Shown here: in pieces, positions 36 through 62,876 of the stretch
How the letters are laid out: every line of letters begins with the position of its first letter
Numbering within the stretch: the stretch's first letter is position 1
Source of the DNA: Octopus vulgaris
Lineage: Eukaryota
Assembly: GCA_951406725.2 (NCBI GenBank)
Contig: OX597839.1
Location: forward strand, 4,774,001-4,838,000
DNA: 64,000 nucleotides
Reading direction: 5' to 3'
Program-made: the position numbers and the translations under genes
Notes under the pieces: model-generated
Told to the model about the DNA's origin: nothing
Databases searched by the model: none
The model's input: only the letters and a program-made list of their open reading frames with translations

Positions 36-80
36 GGCCAGAGTTCTTTCGTCACACTCCTGTGACCGCATCAGTGGTCC
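36..80 (-). ncRNA. Type I hammerhead ribozyme-like motif (family 1), core A9 changed to C
   Basis: Minus strand reads GGACCA-CUGAUGC-G-GUCACA(GGAG)UGUGAC-GAAA-GAAC-UC-UGGCC. It is a homolog of the intact copy at 26706-26750. Confidence 0.6.
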
Positions 81-123
81 TTTGTTTTCTTCTCACTTAT
101 TTGTGTCTCTCCTTACTAACCGT

Positions 124-332
124 TATATAACATGAACAAAGAGAAAACGCAACAACGCGAGGACGTGGAACAAGTATAGTGTTATTATACGCTCGGGAAA
201 GGAAAGAAAGAAGGAGGATTTAACGTTTTGAGCGGAGCTCTTCGTTAGAAACATAGAAAAAGGAAAGGTCGAAGGAAGGGAAGACCGAGAAAGAAAATCG
301 CCAACGATACACACGCGGCCACATATTGAAAT
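124..332 (-). mobile_element. Penelope-like terminal fragment (family 2) with decayed minimal hammerhead at ~218-252
   Basis: Homologous to 14787-14995 and 41185-41390. Minus strand GUUU-CUAACGA-A-GAGC(UCC)GCUC-AAAACGUU-AAAU has two core mutations. Confidence 0.6.
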
Positions 333-656
333 GACCGTAAGAAAATGGGTGAAAAAAGGTTCTTTCAAAGACAGGGGAGTGCAAGAGAAGGAGGTATGTG
401 TGGGTATGTGCGTGCGCGCAGGTGTGTGTGTGTGTGTTATGATAGCACGTGTATCTATGTATGTGTGCGTGTGCGTGTGTGTGTGTGTGTGTGGTTGTGG
501 CTGTTTTTCTATGTGCTTGGCTGGGCTTAGCATCGTTTCGGTCAGCAACATCAGCAGCAGCTCAACCATAACCAAAGTGAGCACCTCCACCACGACCTCC
601 ACCATCACACCACTACCACCCTCATCACCACCACCACAACCACCATCGCTGTCATC

Positions 657-798
657 GCTACCGCTCCACCGCTACCGCTCCACCGCTACCGCTCCACCGC
701 TACCGCTCCACCGCTACCGCTCCACCGCTACCGCTCCACCGCTACCGCTCCACCGCTACCGCTCCACCGCTACCGCTCCACCGCTACCGCTCCACCGC
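657..798. repeat. 14-bp minisatellite (CGCTACCGCTCCAC)n, ~10 copies
   Basis: Direct tandem array visible in the sequence, followed by (GAC)n and (CAC)n runs to ~975. Confidence 0.95.
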
Positions 799-1278
799 CA
801 CCACCACAACCACCATCGCTGTCACCGCTACCGCCCCCACCACGACCTCCACCATCACCACAACGACGACGACGACGACGACCACCACCACCACCACCAC
901 CACCACCACCACCACCACCACCACCACCACCACCACCACCATCACCATCACCACCACCACCACCACCACCACAATCATCACTATCGGACTGCATCCATCG
1001 CCCGCAGCAAACCCTAGAAGAGCGCCGCAAGTACTACAGCAGCAACATCAGCAGATCTGTTGCAACCACCACAAGGCACCGTAACCCTTTATAACCAGTT
1101 ATAACCACTATCACAACTAGCACCCAAACACAAATCAACAAGGCATCCACCAGCACAACACCCACTCTTGCAGCCGCCATTTATTTTCCCGCGCTTCGAA
1201 ATCGTTAATTCCCGTGGAATATTGGAACCCCACACCCAACCCTACCATCGCCGATTAATCAATGAATCAATCCAGTCG

Positions 1279-1640
1279 TACACACACACACACACACACA
1301 CACACACACACACACACACACACACACACACACACACACACACACACACACACACACACATTCATACACACATACACACATATATTAACACACATAAACA
1401 CGCACACATACACACACACACATACACACACACACACATTCATACACACATAACACACATAAACACGCACACATACACACACACACACACACATATTCAC
1501 ACACACACACACACACACACACAAAAACACATGTTCGTACACGCACATATACACACAAATACACACACATACACACATGCACGCATATAGACACACACAA
1601 ACACATACACACACATACGCGTGTGCTCACGCACATATAC
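1279..1640. repeat. (CA)n microsatellite, perfect then degenerate
   Basis: Seen directly. Confidence 0.95.
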
Positions 1641-1739
1641 GCACATAGATATACGCAAATCTATATTCATCATCATCATCATCATCATCATCAAATAACA
1701 CCACTAGCAACATCACCACTGACGACATAATTCGTCGAT

Positions 1740-2475
1740 ACTACTACTACTACTACTACTACTACTACTACTACTACTACTTCTACTACTACTACTACTA
1801 CTACTACTACAACTACTACTACAACTACTACTACTACTACTACTACTACTACTACTACAACTACTACAACTACTACTACTACTACTACTACTACTACTAC
1901 TACTACTACAACTACAACAACTACTACTACTACTACTACTACTACTACTACTACTACTACTTCTACTACTACTACTACTACTACTACTACAACTACAACT
2001 ACTACTACTACTACTACTACTACTACTACTTCTACTACTACTACTACTACTACTACTACTACTACAACTACTACAACTACTACTACTACTACTACTACTA
2101 CTACTACTACTACTACAACTACTACTACTACTACTACTACTACTACAACTACTACTACTACTACTACTACTACTACTACTACTACAACTACTACAACTAC
2201 TACTACTACTACTACTTCTACTACTACTACTACTACTACTACTACTACTACAACTACTACTACTACTACTACTACTACTACTACTACTACTACTACTACT
2301 ACAACTACTACAACTAGTACTACTGCTACTGCTGCTACTGCTGCTACTGCTGCTTCAACTACTTCTACTATTGTTACTACTACTACTACAACTAGTACTA
2401 CTGCTTCTGCTGCTGCTGCTGCTACTACTACTACTACTACTACTACTACTACTTCTACTACTACTACTATTACTA
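1740..2475. repeat. Long (CTA)n trinucleotide array with CAA/CTT/CTG variants
   Basis: Seen directly. The lines starting at 1741 and 1921 are identical, including the CTT variant. Confidence 0.97.
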
Positions 2476-3169
2476 AGCCCATTGTCACCAGTACTACCAC
2501 TTCTTCGACAACTTCTTCAATCTAAATCATTTCTATCGTCACCACTATTAGCACTACTACCTATACCATCACCACCATCACCACCGCCACAGCCCGCCTC
2601 CATCACAAAATATTTCCTATCACCATAGCCAGTACCACTCCCACTGGAACCTGTACTAGCGCCACCACCCACCACCACTACCACAGCCCGCCACCACTGC
2701 CACCGCTACTACTACGACGATTACCGCCGCCACCACCACCACCACCACCAGCCACCTCCCCCCTCTCTCTCTCTCTCTCTCTCCCTAACCAGACTCCATC
2801 CATCCATCCAGCAGTGTGACATGACATCTTCAAGTCGCTTATGTCGATGTCACACTGACATCTGGCTTTGATCTTTCATTCCTTTGCTGTCTTTGTTGTT
2901 GTTGTTGTTGTTGTTGTTGTTGTTATTATTATTATTATTATTATTATTATTATTATTATTATTATTATTATTACGTGATTGATTGATTCTTTAACTTCTT
3001 TCTTCCCGCTTTCTTATTTTCACTCATTCTTTCTTCTTTCCGCTTTTCTTTTCTCCGCTTTCTTTAATTCTCTTTCGGTTTTACCTTCGTTTCTTTCATT
3101 CTTTCATTTCATTTTACACTTTGTTTCTTTTCTTCTGTATTTAATTCATTCATTCATCCATTCTTTCTT

Positions 3170-3700
3170 TTGTTTTTTTCTTTCGTTCTTTCATTCTCCC
3201 TTTCTTTCTTTCCTTCCTTCCTTCTTTCTTTCTTTCATTCTCCCTTTGTTTGTTTGTTTCTCTCTTTCTTTCTTTCTTTCTTTCTTTCTTTCATTCTCCC
3301 CTTCTTTGGTTCCTTCCTTCTTTCTTTCTTTCTTTCATTCTTTCTTTCGTTCTTTCATTCTCCCTTTCTTTGTTTCCTTCCTTCTTTCTTTCCTTCAATC
3401 TTTCTTTCTTTCTTTTATTCTCCCTTTCTTTGTTTCCTTCCTTCTTTCTGTATTTCATTCTTTCTTTCGTTCTTTCATTCTCCCTTTCTTTGGTTCCTTC
3501 CTTCTTTCTTTCTTTCATTCTTTCTTTCGTTCTTTCATTCTCTCTTTCTTTGTTTCCTTCCTTCTTTCTTTCCTTCAATCTTCCTTTCTTTCTTTCATTC
3601 TCCCCTTCTTTGGTTCCTTCCTTCCTTCTGTATTTCATTCTTTCTTTCGTTCTTTCATTCTCCCATTCTTTGTTTCTTTCCTTCTTTCTTTCTTTCTTTG
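3170..3700. repeat. Pyrimidine-rich ~60-bp minisatellite built from TTTC repeats
   Basis: TCTTTCATTCTCCC(T/C)TTCTTTG(T/G)TTCCTTCC recurs every 60 bp over 3300-3660. Confidence 0.9.
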
Positions 3701-61352: not shown

Positions 61353-61527
61353 ATATATATATATATATATATATATATATATATATATATATATATATAT
61401 ATATAGTTGAGTATAGAAATTCGGGGTGAGTACTTGATAATTATAAGCACCTGTGTATACCGTTTGGTGGTGTAGGTGGTGGAGTAAATTGATCAAAATA
61501 AAATAAAAACATGATGCGAAGGATTCA

Positions 61528-61605
61528 GCGGTACATATGTTTCGGGCCTTTATTAGACAGATTTATAACAATGCATAATGTATGTCTGTGGCCTTCTTCA
61601 GCCGC
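61528..61605 (-). ncRNA. Type I hammerhead ribozyme motif (inverted copy)
   Basis: Reverse complement of 61765-61842. Confidence 0.75.
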
Positions 61606-61764
61606 GCACAACATCCAATTTTCCTCATTCTACATTGAGAGAAGAAAGAGATGGACGCTTCAATTCTATGCCGCTGCCGCATTATGTCGTACGTGAATGA
61701 GAGGATTTGCATCCCCAACCAAGAATTTTTGATGTAACACATGTCCTTGTGGAAGCTGTTGTGC

Positions 61765-61842
61765 GCGGCTGAAGAAGGCCACAGACATACATTATGCATT
61801 GTTATAAATCTGTCTAATAAAGGCCCGAAACATATGTACCGC
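61765..61842 (+). ncRNA. Type I hammerhead ribozyme motif with extended stem II
   Basis: GCGG-CUGAAGA-A-GGCC...GGCC-C-GAAAC(AUAU)GUA-CCGC: stem I GCGG/CCGC, palindromic stem III, GUA triplet. Confidence 0.75.
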
Positions 61843-61974
61843 TGAATCCTTCGCATCATGTTTTTATTTTATTTTGATCAATATATATATATATATATAT
61901 ATATATATGTATATATATATATATATATATATATATATATATATATATATATATATGTATATACATCTATTATA

Positions 61975-62197
61975 GGATAAAATTTTTTCGACAAAAATAT
62001 TTTATCAATGGCCAGCATATTATAAAATACCTTTAAAGGTTAAATTTATAAATAATTTATAAACAAGTGCAAAAAGAAAAAAATGTCAATGCCAAATATG
62101 CCGAAATTAGACACAACGTCCATTATATATGGTTATGGACGTTGTGTCTAGTTTCGGCATATTTGGCATTGAATTTTTTTCTTTTTGCACTTGTTTA
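61975..62197. mobile_element. Fold-back insert: ~137-bp palindrome (62061-62197) between microsatellites
   Basis: AAACAAGTGCAAAAAG...GACACAACGTCCAT / ATGGACGTTGTGTC...CTTTTTGCACTTGTTT. Confidence 0.8.
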
Positions 62198-62354
62198 CAC
62201 ACACACACACACACACACACACACACACATATATATATATATATATATAATTGCAGCGTGGAAGGTGTTTATAAGCCATTTAAAAAACATACAAAATCCG
62301 TTAGATTCACTTCAACATTTAAATTTAATTTTTCAAAACATTTTCGCCACTTTG

Positions 62355-62472
62355 AAACCACATGGTCATGGTTTCATGCGTGGCGTCTCGGGTAAGTGTC
62401 TTTCAGTATAGCCAAGGTCCGGTTAAACCTTGTGAATGAATTTGGTTGGCGGAAACTAAAAGAAGCAGTCGT
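62355..62472 (+). mobile_element. Diverged SINE family A 5' half
   Basis: AACCACATGGT...GGTAAGTGTCTTT..TATAGCC...GGAAACTAAAAGAAGC.GTCG. Confidence 0.7.
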
Positions 62473-62609
62473 ATATATATACACCTAGCTAATTTATATA
62501 TATATATATATATATAAATAGCTAAGATCAGTTTAATATATATATATATATATAAATAGCTAAGATCAGTTTAATATATATATATATATATATATATATA
62601 TATATATAT

Positions 62610-62876
62610 CTGTAAAATAATATGTGACAATTGTTCGGTGGCCAAGATAAAACTCTGAGTTTCGGATGCCGAGGTGGAAATCCACAATATCATCTCTTCA
62701 GATGGCCAGATAACCGAAGAGATGGTGTTGTGGATTTCCACCTCGGCATCCGAAACTCAGAGTTTTATCTTGGCTACCGAATATTTGTCACAGATTATTT
62801 AAGAGATAAATTTCCTCTATTTACATAATATTGAGGTCTCTTTCTTTCTTTTGTTATCTTACCATTTTTTACCAAT
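62610..62876 (+). mobile_element. Fold-back insert in (TA)n, ~186-bp imperfect palindrome plus 3' extension
   Basis: 62615-62701 pairs with 62714-62800. Confidence 0.8.
62709..62769 (+). ncRNA. Type I hammerhead ribozyme-like motif
   Basis: GAUAA-CCGAAGA-GAUG...CAUC-C-GAAA-CUCAGAG-UU-UUAUC with a 5-bp stem I. The opposite arm preserves canonical CUGAAGA. Confidence 0.68.

Follow-up and report, generated by a model that had tools for sequence, protein, structure and literature searches.

Type I hammerhead motifs in a 64-kb window of the Octopus vulgaris genome as probable 3' ends of Penelope-like elements

Penelope-like elements (PLEs) are retroelements with minimal hammerhead ribozymes in their pseudo-long terminal repeats (pLTRs), and hammerheads in PLEs, the targeting of TA runs and an octopus Hydra-clade element with both features have already been published (PMC4209133; PMC8557442). 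Recently active PLEs have been reported in Octopus vulgaris itself, in a study whose main text never uses the words "hammerhead" or "ribozyme" (PMC13282606). The described pLTR hammerheads have a short stem I, an extra base after A9 and a palindromic or absent stem III, and they occur as many families per genome, mostly in solo truncated copies, with opposite-strand pairs and a U3-A8 core variant (PMC4209133). All of these features recur in the 64,000-nt stretch of O. vulgaris DNA analyzed here (contig OX597839.1, positions 4,774,001 to 4,838,000; hereafter the window) and in the families that it samples. A sequence-only reading had named eleven short islands in the window as hammerhead inserts. 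We conclude that these islands are very probably 5'-truncated or inverted 3' ends of Neptune-type, Hydra-clade and Nematis-like PLEs, together with one derivative that lacks a substantial open reading frame (ORF), each with a type I hammerhead motif for which weak or assisted RNA cleavage is predicted.

The window is 33% GC and crowded with microsatellites. Our final descriptor specified a stem I of at least 4 bp, a CUGANGA core in which a single substitution at U4 or A6, or else a U3-A8 swap, was tolerated, a stem II of at least 3 bp, GAAA, stem III and UH, with no requirement for a palindromic stem III. Eight type I layouts fit it, against a mean of 0.1 in 20 dinucleotide shuffles made in 200-nt blocks; a stricter earlier descriptor gave six matches against 0.025 to 0.075. 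The eight matches have C3 at -12973, -14913, +18588, +41264, -48982, -61601, +61769 and +62714 (signs give the strand), only three of them have the canonical CUGANGA core, and most motifs of the window lie on the minus strand. Seven were already on the list of the sequence-only reading, whose claim of a hammerhead layout beyond chance is thus confirmed; the match at 18588, with a U3-A8 core, was absent from it. The islands that escape the descriptor are damaged or cut copies from families that all possess an intact motif: A9 is changed at 36, both the core and GAAA at 218, stem I is rearranged at 26706, stem II is mismatched at 60230, and the 5' half is lacking at 56412. That all islands would be minimal hammerheads did not hold, since family F (at 48950) has a 4-bp stem III, and the statement that they mostly sit in (TA)n stood for 8 of the 11, which by eye have a TA run (one of them degenerate) at or beside their end; the island at 26706 has none, 218 has a short TA stretch only and 36 is cut by the window edge. 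A tblastn search agreed that the window contains no PLE reverse transcriptase (RT) or GIY-YIG sequence. Among the matches listed by Rfam scans there was no hammerhead family, and microsatellite or hairpin matches to miRNA models were the only ones, none at gathering score.

Every island belongs to a family scattered through the genome, whose copies share a fixed 3' end at (TA)n and differ at the 5' end, which is ragged or inverted. We searched the genome (2.8 Gb, 227 contigs) family by family, scoring 40 candidates for each and examining 25 to 30 loci; the first-look candidates, which are not copy numbers, came to 3085 for family A, 1576 for B, 1342 for C, 927 for D, 536 for E, 458 for F and 2023 for G. 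A TA run began no more than 16 nt past the terminal motif in 26/30 loci of A, 28/30 of C, 30/30 of D (where the query included the junction itself) and 29/30 of E, against a background of 6.9%, which bears out the proposed (TA)n preference; F showed the same in 7 of 8. Families B, F and G have two alternative ends. Ragged 5' ends were also found in A, B, C and E, and an inverted arm in 8 of 30 family D loci, with the longer tail on one arm in all 8. The 5' ends of A, C and E copies cluster at one place, and such clusters coincide with short palindromes or with microhomologies to TA. In A, E and F (loci L024, L084 and L305) a pyrimidine-rich, AG-ending sequence resembling a splice acceptor lies just 5' of the hammerhead where the 5' ends cluster, recalling the Drosophila Penelope intron that ends at helix I (PMC4209133); it was considered as the cause of the clusters, which the microhomologies and palindromes explain equally well.

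A genome walk upstream of the hammerheads found a C-terminal GIY-YIG domain on the same strand in families A, B, C, D and E, with an RT for A, B, D and E and, for C, the linker and endonuclease alone. The PLE assignment, which had been made from architecture, is now backed by coding sequence in these five. In 6 of the 13 family A loci listed, the hammerhead is preceded, at a distance of 1.1 to 3.7 kb, by an RT, a CX4CxxC linker and a CCHH-bearing GIY-YIG domain, and by eye the protein resembles Neptune1_Ap. The family C endonuclease, 51% identical to that of A, was found upstream in 2 of 25 loci by tblastn. Family B encodes an RT and an endonuclease, and in 7 of 12 loci the hammerhead follows 0.4 to 1.0 kb after the end of the ORF; its protein is approximately 24% identical to that of A, its homologues carry uninformative names, and it is Nematis-like by the endonuclease motif only. 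The CX2-5CxxC linker and CCHH motif are present in translations of A, C and B. Family D shows all the Hydra motifs (DKT, a CxCX5C linker, no CCHH, CxxC and CxH at the endonuclease end, and (TA)n), with RWA in place of RWK; an initial assignment of D as Nematis-like was rejected, as its motifs fit Hydra. For family E, a thumb and endonuclease with Hydra linker and endonuclease motifs continue into an E-type end that is 88.6% identical to the window copy, and the RT core lies in inverted arms of the same locus. These arrangements support the linking of five families to PLE coding sequence, A and C as putative Neptune-type, D and E as putative Hydra-clade and B as putative Nematis-like elements.

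A Neptune ORF near a family G copy (L246) and Hydra fragments near family F copies (L203, L210 and L294) were considered as parents of those families and rejected, as TA junctions and other repeats intervene. The element at L246 (5733-7626) is a separate Neptune-type PLE, 32% identical to family A, with an inverted copy there and more copies at L078, L096 and L303.

Family D is young. A 129-nt stretch is identical in 35 of its 40 scored copies; the order hammerhead, tail, ATG and ORF occurs in 5 of 20 loci, an unbroken 836-amino-acid ORF in 3 of 8, and hammerheads approximately 4.7 kb apart on both sides, that is, pLTRs, in 3 of 8. The full order is hammerhead, tail, ATG, RT, GIY-YIG, 3' untranslated region (UTR) and hammerhead. 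RNA contigs from four runs cover family D but reveal neither joints nor ends, and nothing here rests on them. In family G, all 6 of the 25 copies that reach past the head, the window copy included, start with a piece of their own tail. Its unit is approximately 460 to 480 nt with a longest ORF of 62 codons, a canonical core and a 6-bp stem I, and it was seen as dispersed copies of up to approximately 1.2 units in TA runs; no tandem arrays with two or more hammerheads were found among the best 25 loci of the 2023 candidates. We take G to be a retrozyme-like, circularly permuted unit without a substantial ORF. A suspected lack of U16.1 in G was rejected: comparison with relatives revealed an error of register, and the G core is canonical. 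The sequence-only reading had spoken of termini or nonautonomous derivatives: most islands are 5'-truncated termini of autonomous elements, and a nonautonomous derivative was found for G alone. In family F the fold-back occurs where a 4-nt palindrome marks the foot of stem I, in 17 of 25 copies from a junction-biased search and in 6 of 8 insertions, including that in the window, from a tail-only search; some F copies have a longer unique upstream stretch. A weaker peak of the same kind was scripted out for family E (5 of 26), and palindromes at inverted PLE junctions are known (PMC3846280).

The canonical core is the majority form in families B, D, F and G, and it is also that of the full H copy seen. 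Three abundant families have instead fixed another one while retaining C3, G5, G8 and G12: CCGACGA (U4C) in 24 of 28 parsed copies of A, CCGAAGA (U4C) in 14 of 23 parsed copies of E, and CUGUAGA (A6U) in 26 of 30 copies of C. Over 1.78 Mb of fetched sequence, from loci enriched for the families studied, we counted 48 stem-defined groups as a rough proxy for lineages: 33 are canonical, 6 are U4C, 4 are U3-A8 and 5 are changed at A6. The change at position 4 was to C in all 6 groups and never to A or G, both of which the descriptor allows. Palindromes make up 31 of 54 distinct stem III strings. Across eight A- and C-type copies, C3, G8, A9, A13, A14 and the stems are kept, and G5 and G12 are changed solely in the degenerate window copy; 64 of 64 stem cells pair, with one compensatory G-C/C-G swap, which in so small and related a set is weak evidence. 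In the open-access-weighted literature, including the accessible sections of PMC4209133, we found no mention of PLE families in which a U4C or A6U core is fixed. We put the chance that the variant cores of A, C and E are able to cleave near even.

We propose that the islands arose by insertion into (TA)n, likely by target-primed reverse transcription. In vitro, a Poseidon element primes internally at its tail and cuts AT-rich DNA; cleavage by its hammerhead needs protein, and insertion proceeds without that cleavage (PMC11167929). By analogy with that system, the endonuclease would nick TA runs and the RT would start inside the RNA at the tail, tens of bases 3' of the hammerhead (PMC11167929), so that even the shortest insertion would copy the hammerhead and motifs would far outnumber ORFs. 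Inverted arms would likely form where short palindromes or microhomologies allow self-priming or annealing. The hammerhead itself likely acts as a slow switch, assisted by dimer formation or by protein, that would trim tandem transcripts to unit length and would not be needed for each insertion; if it is dispensable in this way, U4C and A6U cores could spread.

The same core changes could mean that the hammerheads of A, C and E are dead relics that drift neutrally and are carried along beside the RT start site, a reading to which we give somewhat less than an even chance. Altered cores dominate in these families; U4C, known from a viroid, considerably lowers activity in vitro, and A6C is slow and of low activity (PMC3088659). 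The in vitro dispensability of hammerhead cleavage for insertion (PMC11167929) is also what relics would allow. Against drift stand the catalytic positions and stems kept across the eight A- and C-type copies, small and related as that set is, the restriction of position 4 changes to C across the 48 groups, and the viroid U4C variant, which is still infectious (PMC3088659). We consider it improbable that most islands are independent miniature nonautonomous elements, similar to retrozymes or short interspersed nuclear elements (SINEs), that spread via small circular RNAs. This description holds for G, where every copy of sufficient length joins its own tail, and it could accommodate the single 5'-end cluster of A, C and E and the short fold-back form in which F nearly always occurs; long copies of A, B, C, D and E are nevertheless continuous with coding sequence, F is longer upstream in some copies, the 5' clusters lie at TA-like microhomologies or short palindromes, and tandem G arrays were missing from the 25 best-scoring loci. 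That the inverted islands of D, E, F and H are miniature inverted-repeat transposable elements (MITEs) or other DNA-transposon termini that duplicate TA, with a chance fit to the hammerhead, is scarcely credible. Their long, TA-flanked inverted arms are MITE-like and the F copies share nearly one junction, but the arms are unequal (in D, all 8 inverted copies have a longer tail on one of them), the spacers differ between copies, the motif exceeds shuffles approximately 30- to 80-fold, and D and E lead to an RT and GIY-YIG domain, which contradicts a DNA-transposon origin for both.

The reading of the islands as PLE 3' ends has its own weak points, and several results count against it. The best-scoring 12 to 30 copies per search were inspected; TA runs followed the terminal motif in 11 of 26 B copies with that motif and 11 of 23 G copies, low counts that arise in part because a second, longer end exists. 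The clades of families A to E were assigned by motif and by eye against references rather than by a reference tree. The Pfam RT and GIY-YIG scores for A and B fall below curated cutoffs, the family D protein matches neither the Pfam RT or GIY-YIG models nor any PDB entry, and the upstream stretches retrieved for F, G and H contained no parent. The self-cleavage of the island hammerheads is a prediction from their layout.

Very large genome-wide numbers had been anticipated from the window, and a sample of 40 10-kb stretches at round coordinates on all 30 large contigs (400 kb in total) agrees. It contained 22 motifs (20 insertions in 14 of the 40 stretches; 13 with canonical cores) against 0.8 in shuffled sequence, and A-type ends alone gave 9 matches. 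Scaled to the genome this is approximately 154,000 motifs (Poisson interval, 97,000 to 233,000), of which 91,000 (48,000 to 156,000) are canonical; the sample is not strictly random and matches cluster, making the true interval wider than Poisson. We estimate roughly 50,000 to 230,000 hammerhead motifs per genome. Comparison of this density with Xenopus, coelacanth, Acropora and axolotl relies on the generally known sizes of those genomes. Published counts, obtained with other descriptors, are approximately 9,000 for Xenopus and 4,000 for coelacanth (PMC4209133) and more than 6,000 for Acropora and up to 120,000 retrozymes for axolotl (PMC7229834). An open-access-weighted literature search, with the supplements of the retrozyme preprint outside it, found no census of octopus hammerheads, nor this density. 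A bolder interpretation, which we regard as doubtful, is that this is the densest hammerhead load yet described (30 to 55 per Mb in dozens of PLE lineages), that the most-amplified lineages have tuned-down ribozymes with weak cleavage selected (U4C repeatedly and A6U once, catalytic guanines and stems being kept), and that host RNA is affected by inverted hairpins and by intronic copies in the thousands.

The window copies sample every family. At its left edge, a family B copy (a Nematis-like PLE 3' end; 1..123, minus strand) is cut by the window boundary, with its A9-altered hammerhead at approximately 36-80, and a degenerate copy of the Neptune-type family A follows at 144..335 (minus), core and GAAA box both mutated. 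The Neptune-type family C copy at 12846..13023 (minus; C3 12973, core CUGUAGA) and the family A copy at 14779..14995 (minus; C3 14913, core CCGACGA), the latter between TA and CATA runs, both have the majority core of their family. A second family A copy (41181..41400, plus; C3 41264, core CCGAGGA) ends at (TA)n. The other family B copy (26585..26965, minus) has a canonical core, a locally rearranged stem I, a short inverted 5' piece (26922-26965) and a 3' end without a TA array. The additional hammerhead-like motif lies at 18582..18630 (plus), with a palindromic stem III and a TA run approximately 80 nt downstream; it has one more copy, at locus L018. Further U3-A8 hammerhead groups were seen at loci L305, L358, L250 and L259.

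Inverted structures are prominent in the right half of the window. The family F fold-back insertion in (TA)n (48920..49116) has unequal arms: the short minus-strand arm holds a complete hammerhead (C3 48982, canonical core, 6-bp stem I, 4-bp stem III), and in the long plus-strand arm, which has the longer tail, the 5' side of stem I is missing. Family H is represented by an inverted pair of 3' tails without hammerhead (46422..46683) and by a copy truncated inside the hammerhead, leaving its 3' half only, with an inverted tail (56223..56446, minus); the full canonical H motif was found at locus L274. The family G copy (60072..60514, minus) is nearly one full unit of approximately 470 nt that starts with a piece of its own tail, with a canonical core, a mismatched stem II and TA at both ends, and a G-related inverted tail pair without hammerhead lies at 61964..62197. 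Between them, the Hydra-clade family D insertion in (TA)n (61405..61885) consists of a minus arm with the longer tail (61405-61613) and a plus arm (61609-61885), with canonical hammerheads at C3 61601 (minus) and 61769 (plus). The Hydra-clade family E insertion in (TA)n (62604..62880) has a plus-arm hammerhead (C3 62714, core CCGAAGA, U4C), to which an inverted arm (62604-62699) is attached immediately 5' of stem I. Minimum-free-energy folds of monomers, weak evidence either way, contain the hammerhead stems for C, D, E and F; in B stem I forms only partly, and A and G fold differently. Families A and C have in common a short motif approximately 25 nt 3' of the hammerhead (minus strand, window positions approximately 14850-14860 and 12920-12930). 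Its possible pairing with the 3' strand of stem II would make it a candidate off-switch.

Several further repeats were observed. PLE 3' UTRs are long and microsatellite-like (loci L145:rc 6130-9100, L369:6105-7790, L316:480-1650 and L326:2070-2640), with Tandem Repeats Finder coverage of 65% in A, 53% in B, 30% in C and 26% in D against a 17% background. Family A copies align at approximately 91% identity through the CA-rich part of the 3' UTR, and therefore part of the simple-repeat load of the genome is copied by PLEs. Two dispersed families of approximately 400 bp adjoin TA runs and PLE ends and give no descriptor match, one at window positions 48478-48926, 60521-60962, 33674-34060 and 53582-53849 and the other at 49140-49540, 59352-59787, 13052-13411 and 10145-10534. 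An abundant repeat with a 185-bp internal tandem unit (25769-26245, 36870-37290, 54498-54919 and 24398-24644) may be an octopus SINE, and a minisatellite with 19- to 21-bp units stands beside a duplicated 450-bp block (36245-36798 and 35434-36247).

The role of the hammerhead in PLEs is puzzling, as it is nearly universal there yet dispensable for insertion in vitro. Here matched natural variants coexist in a single host: cores of canonical, U4C, A6U and U3-A8 type, a hammerhead whose stem III has 4 bp, a unit resembling a retrozyme, and a Hydra element that is young and has intact ORFs. The motif count also suggests that many short sequences called "unknown," SINE or MITE in such genomes may be PLE ends.

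Set against the described pLTR hammerheads (PMC4209133), the octopus complement differs in number (50,000 to 230,000 here versus approximately 2,000 to 9,000 per genome there, with a different descriptor), in the 4-bp stem III of family F and in whole-family U4C and A6U cores, which the accessible sections of that study do not contain. Features in common with Neptune1_Ap and Nematis are the DKG-type motif, the CX2-5CxxC linker, the CCHH in a C-terminal GIY-YIG domain and the targeting of microsatellites (PMC8557442); the differences are the 3' UTR of family A, approximately 3 kb and 65% microsatellite-like, and the noncanonical cores of A and C. The resemblance of G to animal non-LTR retrozymes (PMC7229834; bioRxiv 10.64898/2026.07.22.740005) lies in a short unit without a substantial ORF, a type I hammerhead, end-to-start joins and occurrence alongside PLEs, and its differences in dispersed copies of at most approximately 1.2 units in TA runs, with no tandem arrays seen, and in being known from the genome sequence alone. 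The Hydra-clade PLEs, including Hydra-1_Obim of Octopus bimaculoides, likewise have the DKT and RW motifs, the CxCX5C linker, no CCHH, and CxxC plus CxH; Hydra-1_Obim shares the (TA)n target and a hammerhead with palindromic stem III, and by eye family E is close to it (PMC8557442). Hydra elements are generally shorter than 3 kb and Hydra-1_Obim is described without a pLTR (PMC8557442), whereas family D is approximately 4.7 kb long, with a 1.7-kb 3' UTR, pLTRs, intact ORFs and identical recent copies. What the octopus genome adds to these published systems is scale, core variants in a natural series, a single family resembling retrozymes and a Hydra element that is both young and intact.

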